Shown here piece by piece: positions 3,447 through 59,343 of a DNA stretch of 64,000 nucleotides; within the stretch, counting starts at the first letter, position 1; each line of letters begins with the position of its first letter. The translations under genes and the position numbers were made by a program. The notes under the pieces are model-generated. The model had not been told where the DNA came from, did not search any database, and saw only the letters and a list, made by a program, of their open reading frames with translations. This stretch comes from a phage, in NCBI GenBank assembly GCA_014686905.1, contig GCA_014686905.1_4093.1; one strand, written 5' to 3'.

Positions 3447-3447
3447 A

Positions 3448-24719: not shown

Positions 24720-24741
24720 TAAATATAGACATAGAGAAAAA

Positions 24742-38294: not shown

Positions 38295-38957
38295 ATGATG
38301 AAAACAAAATTAGGTTTGTTTTATAAAAATTATTTCGTTAAACAGCGTAAATTTATAAAAAAATATTTCTCTGGTGAGAAGTCTAGTCCTATAATTTTTA
38401 AAAGACCAAGTTATAATACTTACTTAGCTGGTGCTAAACAGTCTAAGAAATTTATTACTCTTTTAAATAAAAACAAAATTAAAGCTTCTTATGTTGAAAC
38501 GAGAAGAAACTCATCAATAACTCCTGGTGATTTTATTGAGTACGGATGTTTCAATATTAAGTACAATGATAATACATACTTTATGGATATTGATTGTAAT
38601 ACATCCAATCTTTTTAACATTGTAGTAAATCCATTAAAACAATATAATGTTTATGGTGATTCTATTATCAAATTAATCAAAAACAAAGATAGCTTTGATT
38701 TTGAAATAAATGTTTTAGATGATAATTTTGACGAAGTACCAGTAAACCCTGAAATCTGTGATATTTTAAACAGTTTAAAAGGTAGTACCTACAATATATC
38801 ATCTGATTTAATGTTTCAGTACTCATTAATCCATAAAGATATTGAAAAGTATATTGAATGCTCCAAAATTTTGAATTATCTTTACGATGAATTTAAAAAG
38901 AGTTCTAAAATAACTGCATACACTTTGTACAATATTCCTAAAATGGTGAATCTTTGA
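38295..38957 (+). CDS. hypothetical protein (220 aa)
   Basis: ORF, SD AAGGAG; 3' end converges on the RCC1 array. Confidence 0.55.
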   Translation: MMKTKLGLFYKNYFVKQRKFIKKYFSGEKSSPIIFKRPSYNTYLAGAKQSKKFITLLNKNKIKASYVETRRNSSITPGDFIEYGCFNIKYNDNTYFMDIDCNTSNLFNIVVNPLKQYNVYGDSIIKLIKNKDSFDFEINVLDDNFDEVPVNPEICDILNSLKGSTYNISSDLMFQYSLIHKDIEKYIECSKILNYLYDEFKKSSKITAYTLYNIPKMVNL

Positions 38958-40090: not shown

Positions 40091-40162
40091 TGTATCCTCC
40101 AAATGTAAATCGTTATTATATTTAGGACAAAAAAATGCCAGTACAAGGCACTGGCATAAAAT

Positions 40163-41332: not shown

Positions 41333-41342
41333 AATTTTCTCC

Positions 41343-42522: not shown

Positions 42523-42603
42523 AATTCCTCCTTTATTCATTATACTATATTTAATACAAATAAGAAAGCCAGCACTCTGTACTGGCTTTTTGATATACAT
42601 ACT

Positions 42604-43791: not shown

Positions 43792-43799
43792 ATTCCCTC

Positions 43800-44975
43800 C
43801 TATTCCGGTAAAATCATTTTCTTCATTTTAACTTGTTGTGTACCTGCACTCTGTTCCTGGAACATAGAACCACTACCACACCAGTAAACCTCATTTGTCC
43901 CCACTAATGCGTATAACACACCGGAACCCCCCTGCTCTGCAAAAGCATTAACATCAAGTGCAGTATCTGAATCCTCAAATAGTACTGGATAGTACGCCGT
44001 TCTAGGTGTCGATGCAGTGATTTCTCTACCAAGAGCAACACCATTACCACATGTATACAATTTACCACCCTGTGTCATCGCAATCATATGAGAATTAATA
44101 CAAGAATTATTCAGTGATGCCGCATCTGGTACAATACCATAAATTGGAGGTGTAGCACTAAATGGACTCATTATTATACTGGTATCTCCATAACCAATAC
44201 CTAACGTATAATCGGTATTCGTCCCAGCACTATACACTCTAATAGTACCATTATATGATGTCAGTACTGAAGTCGCATTTGTAGTACATGCAATCCCTAG
44301 TACGGTTCCTGTGATATCTGTACTTACCGTAAATGTAGATAAAACAGAAGAGCTTGTTCCTAGGTTGTAGCGAGCATTACTCCCACATCTGTAGTACTGA
44401 CCATTTTTCACATAATGTAACGCCGCCGCACGGTCTGTGCCAGCAATTAAAGTAACACCTGTGTCAATCTTAAGTGCAGTTGATTGGATTCCAGAAACGC
44501 CTAATACACCACCACCATTACGACCTATACCATATAAGTCCCCGTTGCTTAACAAAATTAATATAGCACCATTGGAAATTGTAGTCTCAGTATAAGCTAT
44601 GTTTTGTATAGTACTAAGTGCAGGTATTGAGGATAAATTAGATGTAATATTAGTCCATCCAGGTACGCTCGCTGCAACTACACCAACATAACCCAATTGT
44701 CCAGCTAAGTATAATTCACCACTTGTAGTAAGTATAATAGTCGCGTAAGTTAAGCACCAAACATCAGCAACGCTATATTGGCACTTAACCCAACCATTCT
44801 GTACGAATCCAGTACTGTCATTTCCTAACTTATACTCACCACCATTCCCACGTAGATATAAATTTCCATTATCGAATAACATCCCAACGTGACTAATGGA
44901 AGTACTAATTTTCTTCACACCAGCACGTTTGGGTATAGTATTCCCGTACTTTACCATTCTTCCAAAAGGTAACAT
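43800..44975 (-). CDS. RCC1-like repeat protein, paralog 5
   Basis: MLPFGRMVKYGNT leader; YGIGRNGGGVLGVSG repeats. Confidence 0.75.
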   Translation of the reverse strand: MLPFGRMVKYGNTIPKRAGVKKISTSISHVGMLFDNGNLYLRGNGGEYKLGNDSTGFVQNGWVKCQYSVADVWCLTYATIILTTSGELYLAGQLGYVGVVAASVPGWTNITSNLSSIPALSTIQNIAYTETTISNGAILILLSNGDLYGIGRNGGGVLGVSGIQSTALKIDTGVTLIAGTDRAAALHYVKNGQYYRCGSNARYNLGTSSSVLSTFTVSTDITGTVLGIACTTNATSVLTSYNGTIRVYSAGTNTDYTLGIGYGDTSIIMSPFSATPPIYGIVPDAASLNNSCINSHMIAMTQGGKLYTCGNGVALGREITASTPRTAYYPVLFEDSDTALDVNAFAEQGGSGVLYALVGTNEVYWCGSGSMFQEQSAGTQQVKMKKMILPE

Positions 44976-45045
44976 ACTTCCCTCCTTTATTCATTATACT
45001 ATATTTAATCAAAAAGAAAAGCCAGTACTCTGTACTGGCATAATT

Positions 45046-46188
45046 TCAATAAACATCCCAAGGTAATGGTGTCTTCCTAAATCCATACCTGGTTGTGGTT
45101 GCACCATCACCAGCAATGTATCTACCGATGCCACATTGGTATAACTCCGTACTACTACATATAGCACCACCAATAGTACCACTACTCCACTGAATTATAT
45201 TAGAATATGTTATTGGCAAATCACTACATTTAGTATATACACCAACGGTAGCAGCACCACTAATACCACCAAACATACTTCGGTTAGCACCAGTATAATA
45301 TATACCATCTGGACTCATAAATGCAGAGGTGTAAGTTGTACTACAATCCACTGGACTTCTTATAGTATTAAGATCGCCTGGGTATGTTCTAGCAGCATAT
45401 ACGTAAACATTACCATCAGTAGTAATACCATTGCCCAACTGACCACTGTTCTGACCACCACACGTAACTAACGATGCAGAACCAGAAACAATTGCAGTAG
45501 CATTATACGAAGTACCCATTGCAATAGAAGCACCAGACAATAGTTTTGGGGTAACGATAGCTGTTGTATTACCCTGGCCTAATTCACCATTTGTGTTTCG
45601 TCCCCATGCGTATATAGAAGTCGTATCCAATCGACATAGTACTGAACCATAACTAAACGTATATCGCATGTCATTTACAGCAGAAGGCAAATTAACCTTA
45701 GTTGCAACACTAATAACACCACCAGTAACACCACTGTTTGCGTTCATGTTACGACCATATGCATATAAAGAACCATCTGAAGTTTTAATATGCATCATAC
45801 CATCTGTGCAATATAATGCATCGATGCTATCCACCGCAACCGGACCCATACTGGCAGTTATATCGGTCCACCCAAGAGTAGTAGTACTAGAAATTAAGTT
45901 ATTTCCTGCGTAAAGGATTCTATTATTATTAGTAACTACCACTGTATATCTAGCAGTAACTCCAATTAATCGAACATCAGTATATATCTTAGACCACGCA
46001 CCTAGTGAATTGGTATTTGCATCCAAAAAGCCTAACTGCCCATCTGTATTGTATCCAATACCCCATGCATCACCTGCACTGTCCAATAACACTTCATGTG
46101 AAAAGCCAATCTTAAAATCTTTTATTGTAGGAACTACTGGAACTGGTGCAATATTCCCGTACTTAACCATTCTTGCAAAAGGTAACAT
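45046..46188 (-). CDS. RCC1-like repeat protein, paralog 6
   Basis: MLPFARMVKYGNI leader; WGIGYNTDGQLGF, YAWGRNTNGELGQGN, CGGQNSGQLGNG. Confidence 0.8.
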   Translation of the reverse strand: MLPFARMVKYGNIAPVPVVPTIKDFKIGFSHEVLLDSAGDAWGIGYNTDGQLGFLDANTNSLGAWSKIYTDVRLIGVTARYTVVVTNNNRILYAGNNLISSTTTLGWTDITASMGPVAVDSIDALYCTDGMMHIKTSDGSLYAYGRNMNANSGVTGGVISVATKVNLPSAVNDMRYTFSYGSVLCRLDTTSIYAWGRNTNGELGQGNTTAIVTPKLLSGASIAMGTSYNATAIVSGSASLVTCGGQNSGQLGNGITTDGNVYVYAARTYPGDLNTIRSPVDCSTTYTSAFMSPDGIYYTGANRSMFGGISGAATVGVYTKCSDLPITYSNIIQWSSGTIGGAICSSTELYQCGIGRYIAGDGATTTRYGFRKTPLPWDVY

Positions 46189-46194
46189 AATTCC

Positions 46195-46253
46195 CCTCCT
46201 TATTCATTATACTATATTTAATACAAATAAGAAAGCCAGTATCAAGTACTGGC
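46195..46253 (-). promoter_or_regulatory. representative module: upstream terminator hairpin + -35-less promoter + SD
   Basis: On - strand: GCCAGTACTTGATACTGGC hairpin, T-rich, TTAAATATAGTATAATGAATAAGGAGG, then ATG; repeated before most paralogs. Confidence 0.5.
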
Positions 46254-46260
46254 CTATATT

Positions 46261-46929
46261 TTAGACTGAATTGTTAGGATAATATCTCCCACGTCCCCAT
46301 ATTATTCGCACAGCACCACCACTACCAGCACCACCATTATATGAACCATCGTATCTACCGCCAATACCATTAGCACCTTGAACAATGATACCAGTACCAC
46401 CACCCGTACCAATGAACGAGGTATTATAGAATGCACCACCACCACCGCCGCCGCCAGCACCATTTTCACCAGTGATTGCATCTCCGTTACCACCTTTACC
46501 AGTGTAGCCACCAGCACCACCACCAATGACTGCACCACCACTTACACCAGCGTTGCCCCCATTACCACCACCATCATTAATAGCGTTAGCAGCTTTCCCA
46601 CCTAGTCCACCAACCCTATATTCACCAGTGAAGCTAACACATAGTTTTTCAGTTCCACGATATAAACCGTTTTCAACTGCTGTAGTAGTGTTGGGATGTG
46701 TAAGAGAAACACTTAAGTACTCACCACTAGTAACCGGAATATTATTACGCCACGATAAGCCGCCACCAGCACCACGTTGACCACCCGGCGAAATAACACA
46801 TACTGATATTTCGGTAACGCCAGCAGGAACTGTAAATTGTGTTGTTCCTATTGTCGTGATTAATTGTTCACCATCTGGCTTATATTCAATTTTATTCCCG
46901 TACTTTACCATTCTTCCAAAAGGTAACAT
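46261..46929 (-). CDS. Gly-rich protein sharing the MLPFGRM leader (paralog 7, divergent body)
   Basis: MLPFGRMVKYGNK leader, then Gly-rich low-complexity body (GGNGGNAGVSGGAVIGGGAGG...). Confidence 0.7.
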   Translation of the reverse strand: MLPFGRMVKYGNKIEYKPDGEQLITTIGTTQFTVPAGVTEISVCVISPGGQRGAGGGLSWRNNIPVTSGEYLSVSLTHPNTTTAVENGLYRGTEKLCVSFTGEYRVGGLGGKAANAINDGGGNGGNAGVSGGAVIGGGAGGYTGKGGNGDAITGENGAGGGGGGGAFYNTSFIGTGGGTGIIVQGANGIGGRYDGSYNGGAGSGGAVRIIWGRGRYYPNNSV

Positions 46930-47000
46930 ACTTCCTCCTTTATTCATTATACTATATTTAATACAAATAAGAAAGCCAGTACTTTGTACTGGCGAAATTA

Positions 47001-48191
47001 TTACAATTGTCTAGGTGTATCCAGAACATATCTATTTGTACTAGGTCCACCATCATCATACGTTCCGGTTGAATATATATTTTTCATATCAGCAGTTAGA
47101 AAAGTACGATACGAACCGCGATATATTTTTATTTTATCATACATAGAATATGATATTTCTGCTGGCATTGGACATATAGTAAATCTACCAATAGTAACAT
47201 TAGAACCAACACCTAATGTACCAGCATAACCACTCGCATTTAAACCAGTTGCATATACACCTGTACTCGTAACTAGTATACTAGATTGTGCTGCATATCC
47301 AGTATGGATTGAATAATAAGTTCCTGATGGTAATGTAGTACTATTATTCCCTAATACTGCTAGTGCTGTACTATTCGTAGTGTTATTACCCCATGCCCCA
47401 TTATTAGCGTTACCACCTACTAGGAACTGACGTGCTCCTGTACTTGGATTCTCTACTAAAGCACTGACAGCACCAATTGAACAACCAGTATATTGTAATG
47501 TTTTTGTATATGTGGTACTTGGCTTATACAAAGTATATTCATTAAATGGTGTCCATGTGGTACTAGTACTTATGCCAGATGTACTACCACCAATATATAA
47601 ATTATTTTGTGTATCAAAAAACATTACACAGTAATTTGTTGACTGTATTTGTGCAATATCTACATCTGGTGTTACCGCTTTAACAAATGAACCATCTGAT
47701 ATTTGATAAGTAGTTCCTGTACCATCTGCGAATTGTCTAGCACTATTCCACCCTGTACTCCATATTGTATTATTATCCATTAAGAAAGTAAACCACGTAG
47801 TACCTGCATACATCTGTTTAATTGAAGTACTTGAACTTTGTGTGTACAAATTTTCAATATATTGGTTATAACTTAAAAATGATGTAGTACTAGTTTCTAA
47901 ACCAATATGACTACCATATCCACAATAAAAATAATTTAAGTCCTTATCTTGAACTAACAAAGTTCCTTGTGTCATCCAGCAATCTTTGACATTTTCTCTA
48001 ATTAATGTCCACGACCTTACTGCATTATTATTTCCTCTACCAAACTTCCCAAAACTATTACTGCCTCGTGCGTATAGTTGACCATCAGTATAAAGTACAA
48101 CAACATCAGTATCAGTTGGTATTATTTTCTTAATTTGTAGTGGTACAGGCACAATATTCCCATAATTCATCATTCTTGCAAAAGGTAACAT
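47001..48191 (-). CDS. RCC1-like repeat protein, paralog 8
   Basis: MLPFARMMNYGNI leader; YARGSNSFGKFGRGNNN. Confidence 0.75.
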   Translation of the reverse strand: MLPFARMMNYGNIVPVPLQIKKIIPTDTDVVVLYTDGQLYARGSNSFGKFGRGNNNAVRSWTLIRENVKDCWMTQGTLLVQDKDLNYFYCGYGSHIGLETSTTSFLSYNQYIENLYTQSSSTSIKQMYAGTTWFTFLMDNNTIWSTGWNSARQFADGTGTTYQISDGSFVKAVTPDVDIAQIQSTNYCVMFFDTQNNLYIGGSTSGISTSTTWTPFNEYTLYKPSTTYTKTLQYTGCSIGAVSALVENPSTGARQFLVGGNANNGAWGNNTTNSTALAVLGNNSTTLPSGTYYSIHTGYAAQSSILVTSTGVYATGLNASGYAGTLGVGSNVTIGRFTICPMPAEISYSMYDKIKIYRGSYRTFLTADMKNIYSTGTYDDGGPSTNRYVLDTPRQL

Positions 48192-48244
48192 AATTCCCTC
48201 CTTTATTCATTATACTATATTTAATACAAATAAGAATGCCAGTA

Positions 48245-49432
48245 TCAAGTACTGGCATTGATTGTTGGAAGTGGGAACTCTTTCATGACAGATGAACTAC
48301 TTGCTGAAATATTATCAGGGGATTTCCCCGCGTAGTATAATTTATTATTAATGTACATATACAACGTTGCATCGTTCCCAGCTACAAGTGATTCACTTTT
48401 CTTAAAATTAACACCATCAGGTAAAATTGCTTCAACAAATGAACCAGAATTAATTGTACTGTTATTTGCCAATTGACCATTGTTATTATAACCAGTACTA
48501 TAAATTTTACCAGAGCTATAATATACCAGGCCACGGGATGAGATGTTTTCAATTCGAATGAATTCACTATCATCTGGAACGGTTTTCGATAACGTTGGCG
48601 TTAATTTATAACCCCCTGCTGTAGTATTATTACCCAACTGACCATCAGCTTGATAGCCCATTGTATACATAGGACATGATTCTGGTGTACCTTTAGTTAT
48701 AATACCAATATAACTCGCACTACAAAAAACGTCTATAGCTTCGGTAACAGGTGTGCCCTTATATTGAACCCAAGGAAATATATATGTGTTTTGAACTCCA
48801 TTTCCCAACGTTCCATGAGATGTTGTCCCAGTACGCCATATTGTATTATCTAGTTTAATAATCCAGTTAGAGGGTGTGATGGATGAACAGAATTTTTTAA
48901 CATTATCGACTAAAAATGTAAATTTATTAAAATATGATGCAGTGTTTAAACCAAACTTTGAATTTTTATTATCACCTAACAAATATAAACTATTATCAGT
49001 ACCTAAAATCAAAGCATAATCAAGACCTACATATATCTCTTTGATTTTTGAAATACCAAATTGTGTAAAATAACTCGTACATTCAGTGAATGTTGTTACA
49101 GTATTTGTTGTATTATTACCTAGCCATTTATCTAAACCACTATAAAAGAATCTATCATCATTTGTTCGTATTAGACAAAACCCATTCCCTGTACTGCACC
49201 AAAAATCTTTAACATTGCTATATATTTTTGTCCATTCAGTAACCTGTGTAGTATTCCCTAACCCAAAAATTCCACCATTCTGAAGACCCATAGCCCACAC
49301 TGATCCATTTACATCCAGCAGCATTGTGCATGTAAATGAATAACCAACTGCTGGGGTGACTAATTTAGTAAAATTGGGAACATATGGAATGACTTTATTC
49401 CCGTACTTAACCATTCTTGTAAAAGGTAACAT
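48245..49432 (-). CDS. RCC1-like repeat protein, paralog 9
   Basis: MLPFTRMVKYGNK leader (track ORF extends upstream through promoter); MGYQADGQLGNN, YSTGYNNNGQLANN. Confidence 0.75.
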   Translation of the reverse strand: MLPFTRMVKYGNKVIPYVPNFTKLVTPAVGYSFTCTMLLDVNGSVWAMGLQNGGIFGLGNTTQVTEWTKIYSNVKDFWCSTGNGFCLIRTNDDRFFYSGLDKWLGNNTTNTVTTFTECTSYFTQFGISKIKEIYVGLDYALILGTDNSLYLLGDNKNSKFGLNTASYFNKFTFLVDNVKKFCSSITPSNWIIKLDNTIWRTGTTSHGTLGNGVQNTYIFPWVQYKGTPVTEAIDVFCSASYIGIITKGTPESCPMYTMGYQADGQLGNNTTAGGYKLTPTLSKTVPDDSEFIRIENISSRGLVYYSSGKIYSTGYNNNGQLANNSTINSGSFVEAILPDGVNFKKSESLVAGNDATLYMYINNKLYYAGKSPDNISASSSSVMKEFPLPTINAST

Positions 49433-49502
49433 AATTCCTCCTTTATTCATTATACTATATTTAATCAAAAAATAAAAACCAGTATCAAGTACTGGCTTTA
49501 AT

Positions 49503-50651
49503 TCATTGTATAAATGACATATCAACTTCGGTATATCTTGTAGTGTACTGCCCAGAACTTCCACCCATTACTAGATTGGAAAAACCAGTATAAAATAACT
49601 TCCCTTCATCTGTGAGAATCAAACTACCGATGTTATTCAGTACTAAACTGTAAGAACTATTAAAATTTTCATAAGACTTGGTATAATAGAACTGATTTGT
49701 AAGATTACCAACACCCAATTGCCCACCAGTGTTAACCCCAGATGCAAATATTGTAGTCCCAAATCTGAGAATATGTGAAGCCATATTACCAACACAACAG
49801 TATATATTCTGTACATCCGAATTCAATAAAGTTGGTGTTGTGTATTGCTTAAGTGTTGTGCCTGTGCCGAATTCATTACCATATGATACTCCATATTGTG
49901 TACCACAAGCGTACAATTTATTATCATCTTTAATAAAAAATGTACTCTGATAACTTACATCGACATCTATAACATTAGTCTGTATTCTAACAACACCAGT
50001 ACTAGCAGTTTGATTGCCTGTCCCTAACTGATAGTAAGTGTTAATACCACAACCCCATAATGTATTATCTTCTTTTAGGTATATGTTACCAACAGCTTTT
50101 TTTACCGATGATATGGCTTCAATCTTAACAAAGGCGTTAAATGAATTTGTATTTGTGCCATTACCAAAAGATGATCTGGTTGATGTGCTGTTTGTTCCGC
50201 AGCAATATAAAGTACCATCAGTTGTTATCAAATTCACTTTAAGATCACTGTAACTACTCATGTATTTTATATCAGAAACATTAATACCACTGGATGTTAT
50301 CCATGAAGTACAATCTGTCCACGTGTTATAATATGCACCTGAACCAGAAAACGCACTCGGACTTCCAGTTATAAACACTTTTCCAGTACCGTCTTCTTCA
50401 TATAATTGACAACCACTACTGTTATTTTCCAAAAGGACTCTTTTAACATTAGTCGCACTAAGAATAAATTTACTCGACGCTACACCAGTTCCAGTACCCT
50501 GACTGACTGCCGCTGATGCATACAAATTTTTCGTGTATGTATCATGAAAATACATAGCACTACCGCCGGAATATATTTTAAAACGTGTACTAGGATCAGG
50601 CGGGTTAGGTGCAATATTTCCGTACTTAATCATTCTTCCAAAAGGTAACAT
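49503..50651 (-). CDS. RCC1-like repeat protein, paralog 10
   Basis: MLPFGRMIKYGNI leader; WGCGINTYYQLGTGNQ, FASGVNTGGQLGVGN. Confidence 0.8.
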   Translation of the reverse strand: MLPFGRMIKYGNIAPNPPDPSTRFKIYSGGSAMYFHDTYTKNLYASAAVSQGTGTGVASSKFILSATNVKRVLLENNSSGCQLYEEDGTGKVFITGSPSAFSGSGAYYNTWTDCTSWITSSGINVSDIKYMSSYSDLKVNLITTDGTLYCCGTNSTSTRSSFGNGTNTNSFNAFVKIEAISSVKKAVGNIYLKEDNTLWGCGINTYYQLGTGNQTASTGVVRIQTNVIDVDVSYQSTFFIKDDNKLYACGTQYGVSYGNEFGTGTTLKQYTTPTLLNSDVQNIYCCVGNMASHILRFGTTIFASGVNTGGQLGVGNLTNQFYYTKSYENFNSSYSLVLNNIGSLILTDEGKLFYTGFSNLVMGGSSGQYTTRYTEVDMSFIQ

Positions 50652-50722
50652 ATTTCCCTCCTTTATTCATTATAGTATATTTAATACAAATAAGAATGCC
50701 AGTATCAAGCACTGGCATTATG

Positions 50723-51832
50723 TTATTTTGGTAAATCAATTTTAGTAAAGACTGCAACATCCTCGATTGCACCTGGAATGGCGTAATACGATCCAGTACT
50801 ATACACATCTCCATTTTTGGTTAATATCGATGTCAAACCATCACTAAAAAGAACATCTCTAATCTCACTAACTTCAACGGGTAATTGTAAATTGGTAGCA
50901 CTATATATAGCACCAGTTTGAGAATTGTTTAATCCCAAACCACGGTTCGCCCCAACACCCTTCTGATATGTACTAGTAATTACCATTTGTGTAGCAGTAT
51001 TTAATGCAGGTGAATTCGTCATAAACAACGGAGAACTATTAGGCAAAGTACTTACAGGAACTGCACGGAATGTAGTCGTACCTGAACTAAGAAAGTTTGG
51101 AGTTTGACCACATACGAAATATGATGTACCATTATAGTAATTTAATGCATTACCACCAATGGCTGCATCGATTACACCAGAACTACGCAATCCCCAAGTG
51201 TTAATTTGTGTTTGGTTCCCCGTACCATGCTGCCCACTACTATTCCATCCAGAACTATATAGCTTATTATCTAATGTAAGATACATACTATCATTCGCAT
51301 TGGTCATTACTTTACGAACGTTCGTAGCACATTGAGTTAATGTATAAATTGATGATGAACCAATACCCAAAGAACCACGATATCCATTATCTCCTGCACC
51401 ATAGAGTACTGAATTAGTGCTAAGTACAAATATTAAACCATTTGTACATACAATATTAGCAATTTCACTTACTGGTATAGCATTGGTAAACCAATTAGTC
51501 CTTTCAACTAATACAGTACTGTAAGAAGTAGTCGTAGAAGATGAGAACCAGTACGTTTGACCTGATGTCCATATAGTATTATCATTTTTAATAATAACAA
51601 GTGTACGATCACCCACGAAAAAATTAGAAACATCTGCACTTACTAATATCCATGAAGATACCGTGTTGGTATTACCATTTCCAGATTCACCACCTTGATT
51701 TCTACCTATGTAATATAAATCATGTGAATCAGTCAATAAGAATTGACCTTGTGTAGAAGCACCAACTTTAATTATATTTTTAGGACCAGGTACAATATTT
51801 CCGTACTTAACCATTCTTCCAAAAGGTAACAT
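50723..51832 (-). CDS. RCC1-like repeat protein, paralog 11
   Basis: MLPFGRMVKYGNI leader; LYSSGWNSSGQHGTGNQ, YGAGDNGYRGSLGIG. Confidence 0.75.
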   Translation of the reverse strand: MLPFGRMVKYGNIVPGPKNIIKVGASTQGQFLLTDSHDLYYIGRNQGGESGNGNTNTVSSWILVSADVSNFFVGDRTLVIIKNDNTIWTSGQTYWFSSSTTTSYSTVLVERTNWFTNAIPVSEIANIVCTNGLIFVLSTNSVLYGAGDNGYRGSLGIGSSSIYTLTQCATNVRKVMTNANDSMYLTLDNKLYSSGWNSSGQHGTGNQTQINTWGLRSSGVIDAAIGGNALNYYNGTSYFVCGQTPNFLSSGTTTFRAVPVSTLPNSSPLFMTNSPALNTATQMVITSTYQKGVGANRGLGLNNSQTGAIYSATNLQLPVEVSEIRDVLFSDGLTSILTKNGDVYSTGSYYAIPGAIEDVAVFTKIDLPK

Positions 51833-51905
51833 AAATCCCTCCTTATTCATTATACTATATTTAATACAAAAAAGAAAAGCCAGCATCAAGTACTGGCATA
51901 TCAAA

Positions 51906-53054
51906 TCACTGCAAAAATGACATATCGACTTCGGTATAATTAAGAACGTTCTGTCCAGCAATACCTCCCATTACTACAATTGAAGCCCCACAATAATATA
52001 ACTTCGAAGTGTCAGTAAGTATAAGTGAACCAGATGGGGTGCGTACCAAATTACACGAAGTATTAAACGAAGTATATGAAGGGGTATAAGAGTACTGATT
52101 AATATTATTACCAACACCTAATTGACCAGACGAGTTGCTTCCAGATGCATAAAGTACTTCATCACCTTTAACTATATGTGACGCCATGTTACCAACACAA
52201 GTATATAAACTATAAACTCCTGAACTCAATAATGTTGGAGTTTTGTATTGTATATCTGTAGATGAAGAAGTACCACCTGTGCCAAATTCGTTCCCGTATT
52301 GTGCACCGAACTGTTTACCACATGCGTACAAATTATTATCTGATTTAATAAAAAATGTACTCTGATAACTTACATCAAAATCTATAACATCCGAAGCAAT
52401 CATCGTCACCCCAGTAATAGAAGTTTGATTACCTGTACCTAACTGATAGTAATAGTTAAAACCACAACCCCATAAAGTATTATCTTCTTTTAGGTATATG
52501 TTACCAACTGCCTTTTTAACCGAAGTTATAGTATCTACCCTTTTGAATGTGTTAAAAGAATTAATGTTTGTACCATCACCAAATGATGATAGGTTAGAGT
52601 TATTGTTAGCTCCACAACAATACAATGTACCATCGTTTGTTATCAAATTTACCTTCATATCATTAAAACTACTCATGTATTTTATATCAGAAACATTAAT
52701 ACCACCTGATGTTATCCACGTAGTACATTCCGTCCACAAAGTTTTTCTATCAGTTACACCAGTGAATGCCTTCGTGTTACCAGTGATAAAAACTTTTCCA
52801 GTACCTTTCTCTTCATACAATTGACAATCACTACTGTTATTTTCCAATAGAACTCGTTTAACATTCTCCGCACTAAGAATAAATTTACTCGACGAAACAC
52901 CTGTTCCAGTACCCCAATTCGTCGCAGAAGATGCATACAACTTATCAGTATAAGTATCATGAAGATACATGGAATCACTGGAATATATTTTAAAACGTCC
53001 ATCATCACCAGGGGCAATATTCCCGTACTTAATCATTCTAACAAAAGGTAACAT
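51906..53054 (-). CDS. RCC1-like repeat protein, paralog 12 (close duplicate of paralog 10)
   Basis: MLPFVRMIKYGNI leader; long blocks near-identical to 49503..50651. Confidence 0.8.
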   Translation of the reverse strand: MLPFVRMIKYGNIAPGDDGRFKIYSSDSMYLHDTYTDKLYASSATNWGTGTGVSSSKFILSAENVKRVLLENNSSDCQLYEEKGTGKVFITGNTKAFTGVTDRKTLWTECTTWITSGGINVSDIKYMSSFNDMKVNLITNDGTLYCCGANNNSNLSSFGDGTNINSFNTFKRVDTITSVKKAVGNIYLKEDNTLWGCGFNYYYQLGTGNQTSITGVTMIASDVIDFDVSYQSTFFIKSDNNLYACGKQFGAQYGNEFGTGGTSSSTDIQYKTPTLLSSGVYSLYTCVGNMASHIVKGDEVLYASGSNSSGQLGVGNNINQYSYTPSYTSFNTSCNLVRTPSGSLILTDTSKLYYCGASIVVMGGIAGQNVLNYTEVDMSFLQ

Positions 53055-53102
53055 ATTTCCCTCCTTATTCATTATATCATATTTACCCCATAAAGAAAAC
53101 CC

Positions 53103-53131
53103 TTGACATCCTTTCAGTACTGGTGTACTAT
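53103..53131 (+). promoter_or_regulatory. sigma70-like promoter TTGACA-N17-TACTAT for small-ORF array
   Basis: TTGACA 53103-53108, TACTAT 53126-53131, SD AAGGAG before ATG 53157; divergent from RCC1 array. Confidence 0.5.
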
Positions 53132-53156
53132 AGAAGGAATATAAGGAGAACTACAC

Positions 53157-53384
53157 ATGACAAATACTCTTAAGCACTACCTCAATACTCTAAATGAACT
53201 AGAGTACGGGGAATTTCTCGCGGATAGTTCGTGGCTAATTGAGCTAAAAAATTATAATAGTCCAGGATGCACCCTTATGATGAACAATGCAATTGATACC
53301 CTCATTGTGAGTATTTTACACAGCAACATCTGCGGGGATAGCAATAAACAATTATCAAAAATCTTAGTACTGCTATCTATATGA
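53157..53384 (+). CDS. small-ORF array member 1 (75 aa)
   Basis: First ORF of head-to-tail array; hydrophobic C-terminus ILVLLSI. Confidence 0.5.
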   Translation: MTNTLKHYLNTLNELEYGEFLADSSWLIELKNYNSPGCTLMMNNAIDTLIVSILHSNICGDSNKQLSKILVLLSI

Positions 53385-53584
53385 ACATTGAACAGTACTA
53401 CATCGATGCACTACCAACAAAAGGTCTACGAGAAAGCCTACTGTATACACAAAATACTTTTATACACTACAAACGTTGTCCTAAACTCCTGAACTCGTAC
53501 AGGAGTAATATCATAAGAAATGCTTTACAAGGGGCAGAAAGTATGCAATACTATTATATCCTTGCCCTTTTAATCGAGTACTAA
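53381..53584 (+). CDS. small-ORF array member (67 aa)
   Basis: MNIEQYYIDALP...ILALLIEY; start overlaps upstream stop. Confidence 0.55.
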   Translation: MNIEQYYIDALPTKGLRESLLYTQNTFIHYKRCPKLLNSYRSNIIRNALQGAESMQYYYILALLIEY

Positions 53585-53585
53585 T

Positions 53586-53795
53586 ATGAATACTGAACAT
53601 AAAGAATTCTACACCAAATACCTTAGCAACGAAGAACAATTGTTTCTAAGGAGTGTATCACCTGTAAGTACCAATACTCACTTCGGTAGAGATTGCTTTA
53701 ATAATTGTATACGTAGTACTCTAGAAGCAATCGAATGCAATAACAAAAATATTATGTACTCAGGTTTAATAGGACTAATCTACTTCTATGAATAA
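53586..53795 (+). CDS. small-ORF array member (69 aa)
   Basis: MNTEHKEFYTKYLS...IGLIYFYE. Confidence 0.55.
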   Translation: MNTEHKEFYTKYLSNEEQLFLRSVSPVSTNTHFGRDCFNNCIRSTLEAIECNNKNIMYSGLIGLIYFYE

Positions 53796-53982
53796 TCATA
53801 AAGATTTCTATGGTAGTAAACTACACAAGCAAGACCAGCTATCATTCTCTTTAGCACCACCTATGAGAAAGGATAATCTATATTACAATTACGATTTCAG
53901 GATGGCGACACGTTATGCAATAGAACATCAGTTCCCTGAAACTAAGTACCGCTCTATCCTGAACCTCATCTTTAAGTTCTAA
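53788..53982 (+). CDS. small-ORF array member (64 aa)
   Basis: MNNHKDFYGSKL...LNLIFKF. Confidence 0.55.
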   Translation: MNNHKDFYGSKLHKQDQLSFSLAPPMRKDNLYYNYDFRMATRYAIEHQFPETKYRSILNLIFKF

Positions 53983-54034
53983 AAGGTGCAACAGGAACCG
54001 AGTACTTTAATATAGTAAGGCTAATTACATTATA

Positions 54035-54220
54035 ATGAATCATATAAGCTACTACTACCAACAACTATCCGACAGAGACAAGTACAGTCACAACTCCCAT
54101 GTGTGGTACTACAAACGCGGCAGTATAAGAGACAAACAACATTACTTCTGTATTTCTATTAAAGAAGCACTGACAACTAAGTACACGTACCGAGCAGTAC
54201 TGAAACTTATTGAAATGTAA
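54035..54220 (+). CDS. small-ORF array member (61 aa)
   Basis: MNHISYYYQQL...VLKLIEM. Confidence 0.5.
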   Translation: MNHISYYYQQLSDRDKYSHNSHVWYYKRGSIRDKQHYFCISIKEALTTKYTYRAVLKLIEM

Positions 54221-54228
54221 GGAAGAAA

Positions 54229-54411
54229 ATGAACATAGAATTCTATTTAACTAAACTACAACACGCCGAAAGATTCAACTTCAATAAGTTCAATATTTTC
54301 TACAATTGCGGGAACAAAAAAGATAAACACACCTTCCTATATGTCGTCACAAGAGATGCACAAAACGAAAAGTACACATACAGAGAAGTAATGAAACTAA
54401 TCGCTATTTAA
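54229..54411 (+). CDS. small-ORF array member (60 aa)
   Basis: MNIEFYLTKLQ...VMKLIAI. Confidence 0.5.
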   Translation: MNIEFYLTKLQHAERFNFNKFNIFYNCGNKKDKHTFLYVVTRDAQNEKYTYREVMKLIAI

Positions 54412-54419
54412 GGAATACT

Positions 54420-54599
54420 ATGCAACAATTCTATAGAGAACGTATAACCATAAAAGACCGTTTCATGTACGACACCTTCGTGAAGTACTACAAACTAGGA
54501 ACAAAAAGTACTAAAAATATTAATCTCAATAGCTGCATTTATGCTGTACTAACACAAGATAATCCCTACAGGGAAATCCTCGCCCTGGCATCTATATAA
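54420..54599 (+). CDS. small-ORF array member (59 aa)
   Basis: MQQFYRERITIK...ILALASI; below track threshold, found by reading. Confidence 0.45.
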   Translation: MQQFYRERITIKDRFMYDTFVKYYKLGTKSTKNINLNSCIYAVLTQDNPYREILALASI

Positions 54600-54609
54600 A
54601 GGAAACCAA

Positions 54610-55281
54610 ATGAAACTTAATGCACACAGCAAACAATACCTTAAGCACTTTAAGTACCTCAATAGTATTCAGGCAGAATCAGTTACATCTGCATATACGT
54701 ATCACCCGAATGTACTAAAGAAACGAAATAAAAAGGAAAAATCCAGTACAAATGGAGTTAACGTATCAAAGAACCTTGAATTGTACATGAAGAAAAATAA
54801 TATAGCTGTTCATTATATGAATATCTATAATACTGATTTAAAAGTATTGAGTACTAATACGAGCACAAAGGTACTAAAGAACGCATCCTTCATCATCAAT
54901 ATGCAGTTGGATAATACCCCGTGCACTTTAATGCTATACTTCGGGAATACATACTTCTTCGGGAATTGTAACACCTCCCACGATGTCAATACAGCACAAT
55001 TCCAAATGGGTGGCATATACAATATGGGTTCAAAAAAAGTACACGAGAATATGCACTTCTGGCAAGCACAACGTACAGAAGAAACTAAATCAATTGTAGA
55101 TTTCCTCAAAGAACTAGAACACAAAGAACTACAGGAAGAAGAACTATTCATGTACAGTACTGTAATCGATAATCCAGTACTCTATAAAAACGCGTACAAT
55201 CTGACAAAACATGTACAGGAAATTATCAGTACTAATAAGAAAATGCATCACCTCATTACGTATATTACAAACTATGTATAA
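54610..55281 (+). CDS. hypothetical protein (223 aa) embedded in small-ORF array
   Basis: Long ORF; stop overlaps start of next small ORF. Confidence 0.55.
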   Translation: MKLNAHSKQYLKHFKYLNSIQAESVTSAYTYHPNVLKKRNKKEKSSTNGVNVSKNLELYMKKNNIAVHYMNIYNTDLKVLSTNTSTKVLKNASFIINMQLDNTPCTLMLYFGNTYFFGNCNTSHDVNTAQFQMGGIYNMGSKKVHENMHFWQAQRTEETKSIVDFLKELEHKELQEEELFMYSTVIDNPVLYKNAYNLTKHVQEIISTNKKMHHLITYITNYV

Positions 55282-55456
55282 AGAATACTACCAAGAACAT
55301 CTCCCAATGCATCTCCAACACCTTGTACCCAAAGAACCAATAGGAATAAAAGATCACGCAAAAATAATGTTCCAACAATGTACTAAGTACACGCTCATAT
55401 ACGATGATAATCCATATATGCTGTACTACGTAGTAATGCTAACATTCAGGTACTAA
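55274..55456 (+). CDS. small-ORF array member (60 aa)
   Basis: MYKEYYQEHLPMHLQHLVP...VVMLTFRY. Confidence 0.55.
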   Translation: MYKEYYQEHLPMHLQHLVPKEPIGIKDHAKIMFQQCTKYTLIYDDNPYMLYYVVMLTFRY

Positions 55457-55457
55457 T

Positions 55458-55637
55458 ATGCACAAACATAAAGAATTCTACCTCTCGTACCTTAATTCCG
55501 ATATAGTAACATCCAATACCTTCAGTACTAAAATTATCTATAATGAATTAATAAAAGAATGTATTAAAGGTGCTATTAACCCTAAAGATACGTATGACTT
55601 GTACTATGCAGTACTAACCCTTGTTTTCACGAAATAA
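55458..55637 (+). CDS. small-ORF array member (59 aa)
   Basis: MHKHKEFYLSYL...AVLTLVFTK; TAATATG junction. Confidence 0.5.
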   Translation: MHKHKEFYLSYLNSDIVTSNTFSTKIIYNELIKECIKGAINPKDTYDLYYAVLTLVFTK

Positions 55638-55645
55638 CACATAAT

Positions 55646-55837
55646 ATGAATAACCACAAAGAATACTACATAGAGAAACTCCCAATGTATCTCCAACACC
55701 TTGTACCAAACGTTGCATTGGGTATAGAAAAAAACTACGAAAAAGACTACTTCATTCAGTGCACTAAATCCTCGATATATATTGACGACTATAATCGAGT
55801 ACTGTATCACATCCTTTTACTAATATATAGGTACTAA
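55646..55837 (+). CDS. small-ORF array member (63 aa)
   Basis: MNNHKEYYIEKLPMYLQHLVP...ILLLIYRY. Confidence 0.6.
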   Translation: MNNHKEYYIEKLPMYLQHLVPNVALGIEKNYEKDYFIQCTKSSIYIDDYNRVLYHILLLIYRY

Positions 55838-55838
55838 T

Positions 55839-56021
55839 ATGCACAAAGAATACTACACACAATTTCTCCCCAGCATTTTTGAACACTACGCCAGATATAA
55901 AGTCCCTCTGGATAACGATTTGGCAGTACTGGGATTCAATAACTGCATAGAACGAAGTATAGAAAATAGTAGTAGTTATGACCAGCTATATAACACTATC
56001 CTACTTATATTCAGGTACTAA
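55839..56021 (+). CDS. small-ORF array member (60 aa)
   Basis: MHKEYYTQFLP...ILLIFRY; TAATATG junction. Confidence 0.6.
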   Translation: MHKEYYTQFLPSIFEHYARYKVPLDNDLAVLGFNNCIERSIENSSSYDQLYNTILLIFRY

Positions 56022-56022
56022 C

Positions 56023-56211
56023 ATGCATAAAGAATACTACACAAAATATTTCCCAATGTACCTCAGAACTAATCTATTAGATAAACCTCGCGGTATCAAT
56101 GCACAAAATGATAAAGTGTATTTTACTATGTGCACTAAAGCATGTATACTAGATTTTGACAGCTACCATCGAGTACTGTATCATACCCTGTACCTAGCTT
56201 TCGTATTCTAA
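56023..56211 (+). CDS. small-ORF array member (62 aa)
   Basis: MHKEYYTKYFPMYL...LYLAFVF. Confidence 0.55.
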   Translation: MHKEYYTKYFPMYLRTNLLDKPRGINAQNDKVYFTMCTKACILDFDSYHRVLYHTLYLAFVF

Positions 56212-56220
56212 GAGAACAAT

Positions 56221-56406
56221 ATGCATAAAGAATTCTACTTAAGCCACCTCGATCTAAACTCCCAAATGCTTATACCACAAATCCCAATAGATATCAAGGA
56301 TAAGAAAAATACCGAACAATTCATTTACCATACACAGTGTGCGATCACCCCAAATTACATTCCATATGAATTGTACTACATTCTCGCCCTAATATATAGG
56401 TACTAA
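56221..56406 (+). CDS. small-ORF array member (61 aa)
   Basis: MHKEFYLSHL...ILALIYRY. Confidence 0.6.
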   Translation: MHKEFYLSHLDLNSQMLIPQIPIDIKDKKNTEQFIYHTQCAITPNYIPYELYYILALIYRY

Positions 56407-56407
56407 T

Positions 56408-56593
56408 ATGCATAGAGAATACTACACACAATTTGTTAAAGGGAACTACAAACATGCCGTACCCAGAACCCCTTTAAATTTTCATGACCCAAGTACTATA
56501 TTCTTGTTTAATGACGCAATACGTACAGTACTCAATACTAAAGATGAAGATGTGCAGTACGTATTCTTACTATTACTTATATACAGACACTAA
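56408..56593 (+). CDS. small-ORF array member (61 aa)
   Basis: MHREYYTQFV...LLLLIYRH. Confidence 0.6.
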   Translation: MHREYYTQFVKGNYKHAVPRTPLNFHDPSTIFLFNDAIRTVLNTKDEDVQYVFLLLLIYRH

Positions 56594-56598
56594 CTAAT

Positions 56599-56808
56599 AT
56601 GAATAAAGAACATAAAGAATTCTACTCCAAATACATAAGCCCCTCAGAACAAATGTTTCTAAGGACTACACCACCTTTAAGTACTAATACATATTTCGGC
56701 AGAGTATGCTACAATAATTGTATTCAAATGACTTTAAACGCAAACGAAGATGATAACAGTACTAACCTGTACTCAGGTATCATAGGTATACTATTCCTGT
56801 ATGAATAA
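56599..56808 (+). CDS. small-ORF array member (69 aa)
   Basis: MNKEHKEFYSKYIS...IGILFLYE (close to 53586 member). Confidence 0.6.
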   Translation: MNKEHKEFYSKYISPSEQMFLRTTPPLSTNTYFGRVCYNNCIQMTLNANEDDNSTNLYSGIIGILFLYE

Positions 56809-56989
56809 TTACAAAGACTTCTATTTGAATACACTACCTACTGTACTTTCTCTAAGTGCTCAATGTAAAATCCCGCTGGATAATGCTTACGCCAGATATA
56901 GCTATTCCATAACTGTTAATCGATGTATAGAGAATCATTGCAGTACTAACCAGTACTATAACATAATCCTACTTATATTCAGGTACTAA
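56801..56989 (+). CDS. small-ORF array member (62 aa)
   Basis: MNNYKDFYLNTLP...IILLIFRY. Confidence 0.6.
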   Translation: MNNYKDFYLNTLPTVLSLSAQCKIPLDNAYARYSYSITVNRCIENHCSTNQYYNIILLIFRY

Positions 56990-56990
56990 T

Positions 56991-57173
56991 ATGAATAAAG
57001 AACATAAAGAATTCTATATACGAAAACTAACATTCGTCCCCGTAAGAATATATAAAGAATGCGACCCAAGATTATACCTATGGCACTTCAATGAGTGCAT
57101 AAAAGATTCTATATACCCTAAGAACTACAAAGAACAATTGTGCTCAGTACTAACACTAGTACTATCATATTAA
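56991..57173 (+). CDS. small-ORF array member (60 aa)
   Basis: MNKEHKEFYIRKL...VLTLVLSY. Confidence 0.55.
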   Translation: MNKEHKEFYIRKLTFVPVRIYKECDPRLYLWHFNECIKDSIYPKNYKEQLCSVLTLVLSY

Positions 57174-57188
57174 TTAATAGAGAATACT

Positions 57189-57380
57189 ATGTATAAAAAC
57201 TTCTATATAAGTAAACTAAAAGAAAATGAACAAGTATGGATTAGATCTATAATTCCACTGGCATTTAATAGATATGCATTTAACAGATGTACCGAGATTG
57301 CTATAGACCCTTATAATATTAAAGAGAATGTACAGTATAATCAGTACTACTATATCTTAATGCTTATATATAGGAAGTAA
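57189..57380 (+). CDS. small-ORF array member (63 aa), last unit
   Basis: MYKNFYISKL...YILMLIYRK. Confidence 0.55.
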   Translation: MYKNFYISKLKENEQVWIRSIIPLAFNRYAFNRCTEIAIDPYNIKENVQYNQYYYILMLIYRK

Positions 57381-58429
57381 TTAAACACAAGTAGACAGGG
57401 GAAGCTCCTAGTGAACAACCTTTATGTACAGGCGAATTGTTAAAATTCAGCCTGGACAAATGCGATCACTAGGATTCTCCCCAGGCTAAACCCCGTAATC
57501 ATAGGTAGTCATAAGTAATCATATATAAACATTTATATGAGCACCGTAGAATCACAGAATGATTATATATGATTCAGTACTGATTAGTATAGACAAGAAT
57601 GCTCAAGAATGCACGGGAAGGATTCAGTACTGATATGCCACTAAGTAGGCAGAGGAAGTCTGCCGTACTTTTTAGTTTCCAAGCTCCTTTTCCATTTTTC
57701 AAATTACATCAAATGTAATCAAAAGTAATCACGCAATGATTAGTACTGAATTATTACTTTCACCTTAATTTCAATTACCCCTTTACCCTTCGGGGTAAAA
57801 TTCAATTACCCCTTGAGGCTCCAGCAAAAAGTTGGTTAGTACTCCATCCTAAATCTCGATCCTAAAAATTTTGGAGTACCTATGAAATAAAAGTTGGATC
57901 TTCGAAAGTTGAAATTTACGTTGGGACGTTTATGATTTGTGGGATATAATGATGTTTGTAGTCGGGTAGTTCTCAAGAATATCAGTACTGAATAATGAAA
58001 GAAAGCTATTGACATTATGATTCAGTACTGTATAATGTTCTACATAGAGAGATGAGTTGCTGCGAACAATTCATTTACTCTATCTCCTGTCGTGAGACAG
58101 TACAGAAAAGATAGTTCCTCCTGTGGTGGTACATCTTTTTGAACCTCATATGAAAATCGTAATAACAGTACTGATATTAACAGAATGGTGTCAGTACTGA
58201 TTTTAATCTAAAGCATTATGCCACCAGCTTGTGCTGGTGGATTCCCTCTAACAGTATTCAGTACTACATGATGGTCTTCATCCTCCTAGGGTAACATAGT
58301 GAGGGCTATGATGGCAGTACTGAATACTCCCTTTCAAAAGATAGATCTATGGTATAGTACTGACGGATTTTGGGTGTAGTTACCCTGGATGGATTTTGGG
58401 CGTAGATATGTCTAGCCCTCCAGAAGTCT

Positions 58430-58545
58430 GGAAGTAAAGATGGCTATCCATCTAGACGGCTAAACGGCTAGATGGCTGGATGGCTAGACGTTTGGACGGC
58501 TAAACGGCTAGATGGTTACACGTCTGGAAGTATAGACGGCTAAAT
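58430..58545. repeat. iteron-like short direct repeats
   Basis: GACGGCTAAACGGCTAGATGG twice plus partial third copy; GTCTGGAAGTA twice. Confidence 0.6.
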
Positions 58546-59158
58546 CAAAATTTTATTTTGTTTTTCCAATAGTTCCCCTACCGCGTGGGGATAGTTTCCC
58601 CGCAGTATCTGGCGTTAGATTTTTCTGAATCTGGAATCATTATCTTATAAACTGGGGGCAATGTCAACGACCTGGACGGATATTTTTAAAAATTTTTTCA
58701 GTACTGAATTTTGGGCGTAACTATGCACCCGGTGGGCTTGAGTCTTTCTCGACTTGATGGAACTATTATACAGTACTGGAAAAATAAAGCAATACCCTGG
58801 ATGAAAAAAGTTTTAATTAATTTGCTTGCCATCCTGGGCCGGACTATGGTACTATATTTCAGTACTGAGAAAGTGCGTTTACCTGCTAGGGTGCGGGAGT
58901 GTATCCTTTTTTTATATCTTGAATTTTGGACGGATCTTCCCACCCCCTGGGGTATCCGCTTTCTCGCGTCTATGTAGTAATTATACGCTTTTTCAGGATC
59001 AAGTCAATACCTAAAAACAAAATAATTGAAAATAATTTAACGCGTTTAAACGGCCCGTAACGCCCTGGAATGATTAGAATGGTGCAAATGTATAGCTTAG
59101 GTGTATTAATGCGTTAGAATGCGTCTGAGGCCGTTTTATGGGGTGTAGTAGTGATTTG

Positions 59159-59251
59159 GTTGATTCAGTACTGAATAATAGTACTCCTATATAGAAAGAT
59201 AGTTCCCCTGGATTGATTCAGTACTGAATAATAGTACTCCTATATAGAAAG
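59159..59251. repeat. ~38-bp direct repeat, two copies
   Basis: TTGATTCAGTACTGAATAATAGTACTCCTATATAGAAAGA twice, separated by ~15 bp. Confidence 0.7.
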
Positions 59252-59283
59252 AAAACTATTTTAAAAGTATTTGTAGAAAGTAC

Positions 59284-59343
59284 TTGCACCGTACTGATAA
59301 AAGCGTATAATGTTTTACATCGAGAGCGGGAACACTTCCCGCT
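59284..59343 (+). promoter_or_regulatory. PeSL-like cassette: promoter + 5' stem-loop
   Basis: TTGCAC-N16-TATAAT, GTTTTACAT, stem AGCGGGAA-CAC-TTCCCGCT. Confidence 0.6.

Follow-up and report, generated by a model that had tools for sequence, protein, structure and literature searches.

The DNA analyzed here is a 64,000-nucleotide (nt) stretch of a phage genome (GenBank assembly GCA_014686905.1, contig GCA_014686905.1_4093.1), which we call the window. Between positions 53157 and 57380, its plus strand carries 18 paralogous open reading frames (ORFs) of 59-75 amino acids (aa), which we designated U01 to U18. We found that these ORFs are conserved, that purifying selection acts on them in a relaxed form, that they make up a multigene family built by tandem duplication, with birth-and-death evolution and a mix of old and recent duplicates, and that this family is restricted to E. 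coli and Salmonella jumbo phages of the genus Asteriusvirus. As to function, we see about an even chance that the products are early, non-virion small binding proteins directed at host targets, made from an early polycistronic transcript by coupled translation.

The array and its genes

The source of the window is an Asteriusvirus jumbo phage of the 121Q/PBECO4/slurp01 group. The region 53100-57500 matched 36 GenBank phage records, all from jumbo phages of Escherichia or Salmonella that measure 310-386 kb. The closest record was vB_Eco_slurp01 (97%), followed by JP4, 121Q, PBECO4, phAPEC6 and other Asteriusvirus members, and in every one of the records the array genes are annotated as 'hypothetical protein'. 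The genes and the elements proposed for their expression are listed below; the start codons of two units, U08 and U12, were reset (to 55274 and 56023, respectively).

53103-53131, plus strand: sigma-70-type promoter TTGACA-17-TACTAT, called from its conservation
53143-53148, plus strand: Shine-Dalgarno sequence AAGGAG, 8 nt before the U01 ATG; the only strong such site in the array
53157-53384, plus strand: U01, 75 aa; most divergent member of the family
53381-53584, plus strand: U02, 67 aa; ATGA overlap with U01
53586-53795, plus strand: U03, 69 aa; recent duplicate of U15 (59% amino-acid and 75% nucleotide identity)
53788-53982, plus strand: U04, 64 aa; 8-nt overlap with U03
54035-54220, plus strand: U05, 61 aa; subfamily U05-U07; preceded by a 52-nt gap
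54229-54411, plus strand: U06, 60 aa; Shine-Dalgarno-like AAGGA
54420-54599, plus strand: U07, 59 aa; Shine-Dalgarno-like AAGGA
54610-55281, plus strand: ORF223, 223-aa orphan (phrog_29152) between U07 and U08
55274-55456, plus strand: U08, 60 aa; start corrected; 8-nt overlap with ORF223
55458-55637, plus strand: U09, 59 aa; TAATATG junction
55646-55837, plus strand: U10, 63 aa; reciprocal best hit is J09 of phage JNE01
55839-56021, plus strand: U11, 60 aa; unit chosen for structure prediction
56023-56211, plus strand: U12, 62 aa; start corrected; single-base junction TAACATG
56221-56406, plus strand: U13, 61 aa
56408-56593, plus strand: U14, 61 aa; TAATATG junction
56599-56808, plus strand: U15, 69 aa; duplicate of U03
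56801-56989, plus strand: U16, 62 aa; 8-nt overlap with U15
56991-57173, plus strand: U17, 60 aa; TAATATG junction
57189-57380, plus strand: U18, 63 aa; final unit
57645-57672, plus strand: terminator-like hairpin with T-run, the first such site after the array and a candidate operon end

An earlier note, made from the sequence alone, had described 18 paralogous ORFs of about 60 aa in a head-to-tail array, and the ORF list and a hidden Markov model (HMM) both agree with that count. Stop-free stretches of at least 59 codons numbered 19 on the plus strand of the array and covered 99% of it; 200 shuffled controls gave a mean of 3.8 stretches and 18% coverage (maxima 9 and 47%), and the minus strand held 4 stretches with 22% coverage. 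The HMM built from the units retrieved exactly 18 members in the window and none besides, although pairwise amino-acid identity among the units averages 22% and reaches at most 59% (U03/U15). The units do stand in tandem, but the array is split by ORF223, an unrelated gene that the earlier note had not mentioned. Spacers are nearly absent, as had been claimed: at seven junctions a single base separates the stop from the next start (TAATATG in six cases, TAACATG in one), U01 and U02 share an ATGA overlap, and three junctions are 8-nt overlaps, including that of ORF223 into U08. The remaining gaps are mostly 5-15 nt, with a single gap of 52 nt between U04 and U05. The family takes up about 3.5 kb per genome (18 genes here, 16-22 in relatives).

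ORF223 lies inside the array in every genome examined, including JNE01, the most distant lineage, in which it is 40% identical. Its termini resemble a unit by eye, but the idea that it is a unit with an inserted domain was unsupported (hhalign probability 0.2%). The AlphaFold2 model of ORF223 was poor and uninformative, with a predicted local distance difference test score (pLDDT) of 43.

Coding, expression and evolution of the array

We compared the array with slurp01, JP4, SP27, BF17 and TH47, pairing each unit with its ortholog. The pooled ratio of nonsynonymous to synonymous substitution rates (dN/dS, Nei-Gojobori) over the unit-ortholog pairs was 0.33-0.49 across the five relatives. On blastn-anchored alignments, the annotated frame gave 0.33-0.51, the two other plus-strand frames 1.0-1.4, and the minus-strand frames 1.05-1.45, except the antisense frame that shares wobble positions, which gave 0.61-0.70, as expected. 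Fisher tests of dN/dS below 1 returned p values from 1e-4 to 4e-9. The adjacent RCC1-like gene, over limited comparable stretches, had a dN/dS of 0.14-0.41, and ORF223 one of about 0.5 against four relatives and of 1.30, on very few substitutions, against slurp01. Because dN/dS below 1 is specific to the annotated frame, the units are very probably translated. The argument for translation in the earlier note, that the frame is kept in every unit, agrees with this, and the codon-level selection analysis that it suggested found constraint at the protein level.

The base composition of the array is unusual. On its coding strand, C exceeds G and A exceeds T, a pattern that no other gene block of the window shows, and the cumulative GC-skew minimum falls at the array end (about 57.5 kb), not at the divergent promoter. 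Third-position C is 0.26 in the array and ORF223 compared with 0.12 in the other window genes; TAC makes up 63% of Tyr codons (33% elsewhere), TTC 74% of Phe codons (30%), and AGA plus AGG 67% of Arg codons (22%). Adaptation to the host for high expression was rejected as the source of this usage: TAC, TTC and CAC are raised, but the rare AGA/AGG codons dominate Arg and AAC is not raised. If the array were a non-coding repeat acting at the DNA or RNA level, with incidental open frames, then the atypical GC skew and third-position composition, the high density of the palindrome AGTACT (6.2 per kb) and the lack of a Shine-Dalgarno sequence of their own in most units would all fit. We regard this as very improbable in view of the ORF coverage of 99% in AT-rich sequence compared with 18% in shuffles, the frame-specific dN/dS below 1, the confident fold prediction for U11 described below, the frame-preserving, whole-unit indels between genomes, and the lack of an Rfam match.

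The promoter and the AAGGAG sequence lie in a divergent intergenic region of 84 bp. The -35 and -10 elements, their spacing and AAGGAG are kept in all six genomes examined (slurp01, JP4, BF17, TH47, SP27 and JNE01). JNE01 has TTGACA-17-TACAAT with AAGGAG, despite proteins diverged to 25-58% identity. The earlier note had proposed a single promoter at 53103. The promoter is conserved genus-wide, but its being the only one is unproven, as promoter-like sites also lie within the array at about 55781-55810 (in U10) and 56156-56184 (in U12). In the related phage CBB, RpoD-like promoters cluster before short hypothetical ORFs, which the authors deemed early host-takeover genes (PMC5259590); on sequence evidence, the array has a sigma-70-type promoter, as expected of an early host-takeover cluster. 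The T4-type late motif TATAAATA was absent near the array, and 2 copies were found window-wide against 13.5 expected. Each copy (24069-24076 and 24718-24725) closely precedes one of two paralogous genes, 24113-24496 and 24742-26295, which are therefore likely to be late genes.

Within the array, Shine-Dalgarno-like AAGGA precedes U06, U07 and ORF223, and three units have only a 3-nt match. For five units, AGGT is provided by the Arg-Tyr-stop codons of the preceding unit (AGG TAC TAA). The seven genes without a Shine-Dalgarno match overlap or abut the previous gene. Because the junctions are overlaps or single-base spacers and, for five units, AGGT stands in the end of the preceding unit, most later units look translationally coupled. 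The conserved C-terminal Arg-Tyr may thus in part reflect a constraint at the nucleotide level that serves re-initiation.

A word-indexed profile search gave 35 proteins. When 1.84 billion cluster representatives were searched exhaustively with a HMMER profile, 34 clusters were recovered, all of 41-75 aa and all in-family; in this exhaustive search, the family never occurred as a domain inside a larger protein. tBLASTn found the family only in 34-36 Escherichia or Salmonella jumbo phages. A scan of PHROGs matched 13 of 19 sequences to phrog_11711 (best E-value 5e-28), which is annotated without function. Five of the 18 true units missed the 0.01 threshold and join the family through the window-built HMM, and the nineteenth sequence was the C-terminus of ORF223, which matched phrog_29152. 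Our literature search yielded no paper that describes the family; Hua et al. 2017 (PMC5646251) mention, in a single unspecific sentence, a tandem array of similar genes in 121Q without naming the genes. The mini-gene and RCC1-like arrays combined would total about 30 when set against that passage. The statement of the earlier note that no such phage system has been described holds to the extent that no analysis of the family was found in the literature, but the array already exists in databases, being deposited in about 36 genomes in GenBank and grouped as PHROG 11711.

Copy number by HMM was 18 in the window, 20 in slurp01, 21 in JP4, 22 in BF17, 16 in TH47 (an unverified record, in which two units are shortened) and 19 in SP27. 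Indels between these genomes are whole units and preserve the frames. JNE01 has about 16 units in the same architecture. U02, U07 and U14 are far closer to their positional counterparts in JNE01 than to any paralog within the window: U02 is 49% identical to J02 and 24% to its best paralog in the window, U14 is 56% identical to J14 and 38% to its best paralog, and U07 is 58% identical to J06, which likewise directly precedes ORF223. U01 and U10 are also reciprocal best hits with JNE01 genes at corresponding positions, U01 with J01 at only 25% identity, which is barely above the within-window background. Other members are lineage-specific expansions (U03/U15 and the group U08/U10/U12/U13). Thus, some paralog lineages have been kept collinear since before the deepest split sampled in the genus.

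These data bear on the possibility that the array is genome filler, that is, nearly neutral duplicates that accumulated after capsid enlargement and are translated with little or no individual function. Hua et al. proposed tandem duplication as a route of jumbo-genome expansion and cited an array in 121Q (PMC5646251); selection on the units is relaxed (0.33-0.51), close relatives gain and lose whole units, and the family has no homolog with known function. On the other hand, dN/dS is significantly below 1 in the coding frame only, and every unit in the window and in most relatives (two are shortened in TH47) is a full-length ORF at dS up to about 0.2. The promoter and Shine-Dalgarno sequence are strictly conserved, paralogs and orthologs share conserved positions, and several paralog lineages have stood in the same order since the JNE01 split. 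The long retention of distinct paralogs argues against pure filler, an explanation that we consider unlikely.

Properties of the proteins and their possible role

Alignment of the units supported the Tyr-rich N-terminus and hydrophobic aromatic C-terminus that the earlier note had read from them. The units begin with the motif M(N)HKE(F/Y)Y, one Tyr of which is the same in all 18, and the C-terminal motif is ...Y..(I/L)L.LI(Y/F)RY, with one Leu present in 17 of 18; a semi-conserved Pro and F..C(I/T)...(I/L) within helix 3 are also shared. Tyr is abundant in the units (11%, compared with 5% in the other window genes), and Gly, Val, Asp, Glu and Ala are scarce. Isoelectric points (pI) range from 5.0 to 9.5, and half of the units are acidic or neutral.

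Structure prediction of one unit, which had also been suggested, gave a confident model. With a family alignment of 52 sequences, AlphaFold2 predicted U11 to be a small four-helix domain (pLDDT 87.4; predicted template-modeling score, pTM, 0.69), with helices at residues 2-7, 12-18, 27-41 and 46-59. The BFVD model of a 98%-identical protein agreed with it (template-modeling score, TM-score, 0.93). Orthologs differ most in the stretch that joins helix 2 to helix 3 and least in helix 4, with 0.21 amino-acid differences per site in profile columns 21-32 (the helix 2-3 segment) and 0.10 in helix 4. Conservation of a column among paralogs goes along with its conservation among orthologs (Spearman 0.31, p = 0.013), and the positions conserved family-wide are mostly aromatic or hydrophobic. 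Together, these three observations suggest a conserved scaffold bearing a variable loop or surface.

We found no transmembrane segment: the maximal 19-residue Kyte-Doolittle mean across the units was 1.18, the longest run free of charged or strongly polar residues or Pro was 13, and the N-termini are polar and not signal-like. A membrane role of the holin, spanin or superinfection-exclusion type was therefore rejected for want of a transmembrane segment or signal peptide. A zinc-binding role was also rejected, since CxxC or CxxH pairs are missing; CxxC is absent from all units, which have 0-3 Cys each, one of them semi-conserved (10 of 18). Searches of Pfam, NCBIfam and PADLOC gave only scattered single matches with E-values of 0.01 or weaker, and a sequence profile search of the PDB returned nothing at E-values up to 10. 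No similarity of fold to solved small phage inhibitors (anti-CRISPRs, AsiA, Ocr/Arn-type mimics and similar) was found, nor any relative of the U11 fold outside the family.

Repeated tandem duplication has produced a lineage-specific family of 18 genes for soluble proteins of about 60 aa. As to its expression and action, we propose the following course of events. Host RNA polymerase would transcribe the array early as a polycistronic mRNA, from which most units would be translated by coupling to the preceding unit. The cytoplasmic, non-virion products would then act as small protein binders on host targets, in host takeover or anti-defence, and the paralogs would have diverged in specificity. 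The earlier note had named an anti-defence or host-modulating family as one candidate, and that candidate appears compatible with all of the observations. A more specific form of the idea, which we put forward tentatively and consider unlikely, is a diversified library of mini-binders on a four-helix scaffold with a hypervariable loop, in which each paralog would neutralize a different host factor early in infection. The targets might be defence-system variants or surface or stress pathways, and the library would grow and shrink by unequal crossing-over as hosts change. A hetero-oligomeric alpha-solenoid of stacked, separately encoded units is a less likely variant of such a library.

Several points weigh against early, host-directed binders. 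Promoter-like sites in the region are not above chance (27 found, 32 expected), and the promoter call is based on its conservation and not on that scan. Selection on the units (dN/dS 0.33-0.51) is relaxed and similar to that on ORF223, and by itself gives no sign of an arms race. The fold was modeled for U11 alone, and the BFVD model of a 30%-identical 121Q paralog fits it poorly (TM-score 0.46). The codon usage of the array is odd, and neither simple strand bias nor host-codon adaptation fits it. Virion mass spectrometry, on which the non-virion assignment draws, can miss small proteins, and our literature searches yielded no Asteriusvirus transcriptome or infected-cell proteome.

The neighbors of the array bear on a role in assembly. 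At 38938-53072, on the minus strand, the window holds 12 long RCC1-like beta-propeller paralogs (about 228-439 aa) and two short related ORFs. The mini-protein array is thus arranged head to head with 12-14 RCC1-like paralogs. Among the 62 proteins of the phAPEC6 virion proteome, 8 of 11 RCC1-like paralogs and a 4.66-kDa protein were detected (PMC7247149); none of the 62 is a mini-protein (Table 1 of that one study). The units could be subunits or chaperones of a structure, such as an inner body or decoration, or partners of the virion RCC1-like proteins, with coupling keeping their amounts equal. The head-to-head arrangement with paralogs found in the virion, the inner body of unknown components shown by 121Q and phAPEC6 (PMC5646251; PMC7247149) and the junctions that hint at coupled translation would agree with this. 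We nevertheless judge an assembly role to be improbable, to about the same degree as filler. No mini-protein was found in the phAPEC6 virion even though the 4.66-kDa protein was seen, the promoter is of the host sigma-70 type and not of a late type, and a copy number of 16-22 among close relatives fits a fixed stoichiometry poorly. Salmonella phage Munch also has an RCC1-like tandem array of at least 9 copies, and Yersinia phage fHe-Yen9-03 one of at least 5; no member of the mini-protein family was found in the flanking regions examined in these two phages, so that an obligate partnership with the RCC1-like proteins is unlikely. The suggestion of the earlier note that the units are stoichiometric subunits of a structure is accordingly disfavored for the virion, given the phAPEC6 proteome and the sigma-70-type promoter; the phAPEC6 evidence does not bear on a non-virion intracellular assembly.

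The spacer of the array promoter holds the palindromic motif CAGTACTG at 53115-53122, and the window contains a class of promoters of the form TTGACA-N8-CAGTACTG-TATAAT (or G-CATAAT), in which the palindrome fills the spacer beside the -10 element, in operator position. The palindrome cores are at 15196, 19506, 30126, 53115, 58023, 60780, 62056 and 62842 on the plus strand and at 60917 and 62455 on the minus strand. Perfect copies with the TATAAT element have their cores at 15196, 19506, 30126 and 58023, and the array promoter is a variant with the palindrome shifted by 2-3 nt. AGTACT, whose density in the array is given above, occurs 224 times in the window compared with 22 expected (tenfold), in genes in all three codon phases and between genes, and TCAGTACTGA with at most one mismatch occurs 57 times compared with 2.7 expected. 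AGTACT is equally dense in other Rak2-like genera (49-52 per 7 kb in positions 1-7000 of Munch and of fHe-Yen9-03). Such a genome-wide excess is unusual for a restriction-type palindrome and hints that a phage protein binds or modifies the DNA at this sequence.

The mini-proteins themselves might be regulators of the phage programme, either DNA-binding factors that recognize AGTACT/CAGTACTG or RNA-polymerase-binding factors that modulate host or phage sigma factors and thereby time the end of early transcription. In line with this are CAGTACTG between the -35 and -10 elements of the array promoter and many others, the palindrome cluster directly downstream of the array, the basic character of some units (pI up to 9.5) together with the Tyr-richness of all, and the roughly 35-copy zinc-ribbon expansion of phage G, which has been proposed to encode transcription factors (PMC7824862). 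We think that this is quite unlikely. No helix-turn-helix, zinc-ribbon or other DNA-binding signature was found in the units, there was no fold match to AsiA-like or other polymerase binders, and half of the units are acidic or neutral. Moreover, one invariant DNA motif needs no 18 diverged paralogs, and other genera carry the motif at high density while the family was not found in the regions examined.

Downstream of the array, positions 57381-59300 (roughly 2 kb) are ORF-poor and are unannotated in slurp01 too. They hold roughly a dozen (T)TCAGTACTGA(A) copies, many of them outside any promoter context, a 53-bp tandem duplication (59160-59199 / 59213-59252), a GC content of up to 0.41 and a change in the sign of the GC skew at about 57.5 kb. 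Folding is unusually strong in the first 300 nt (z = -4.2), where a long hairpin lies at 57392-57488. Rfam scans of the window and of the non-coding region downstream of the array found one tRNA only, tRNA-Thr (anticodon TGT) at 1434-1507, with no match for the array or for 57381-59300. The latter stretch might serve as an origin or a regulatory hub, or encode a non-coding RNA. Elsewhere in the window there are three more two-member pairs of small plus-strand paralogs (1942-2307/3448-3864, 28431-28769/28773-29120 and 35473-35814/35814-36152), which suggests that genes are often duplicated in tandem in this genome region.

Comparison with known systems

The family amounts to 18 genes in a coliphage group now proposed for therapy, and most jumbo-phage genes lack a known function. 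If the units are early host-directed binders, they would offer a natural panel of variants on one tiny scaffold, suited to screens against the defence systems and essential proteins of E. coli, and a tractable case for the birth, diversification and loss of phage accessory genes. If they are filler, they would support the growth of jumbo genomes by tandem duplication into an enlarged capsid. Either way, the family is small, soluble and easily tested.

The closest parallel is within the same genomes. The RCC1-like ('DNA condensation protein') array, noted in PMC5259590 and PMC7247149, is also a lineage-specific tandem expansion, adjacent to the mini-protein array and divergent from it. Its products are beta-propellers of about 380 aa with Pfam matches, detected in virions and present in several Rak2-like genera, whereas the mini-proteins are helical orphans of about 60 aa that were not detected in virions and are confined to Asteriusvirus. 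The zinc ribbons of phage G (about 35 copies; Iyer et al. 2021, PMC7824862; Hua et al. 2017, PMC5646251) likewise show how a very small protein has expanded greatly in a jumbo phage, read as tandem duplication and with a guessed function. They differ in that the units here lack CxxC and the U11 model is all-helical, and they belong to another family in another phage with another host.

A further parallel is the early host-takeover cluster, in which short ORFs follow sigma-70 promoters; examples are the gp37-60 module of SPO1 and the terminal-repeat 'tre' genes of Herelleviridae. The CBB_390-546 cluster of phage CBB also comprises many small, packed ORFs behind host-type promoters, presumed early and non-structural (PMC5259590). 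In all of these clusters, the genes are mostly unrelated to each other, whereas 18 of the 19 genes here belong to one family and their early timing is inferred from the promoter only.

In large eukaryotic DNA viruses, tandem arrays of paralogs with copy-number variation are thought to diversify the specificity of host interaction, as in the multigene families (MGF) of African swine fever virus (ASFV) and the amplification of K3L in poxviruses ('gene accordions'). The proteins are unrelated to those described here, and a role in host range has been demonstrated there, whereas for the array it is a proposal only. Should the units form a library of binders, they would be the phage equivalent of such host-range multigene families, with an orphan fold as the building block.

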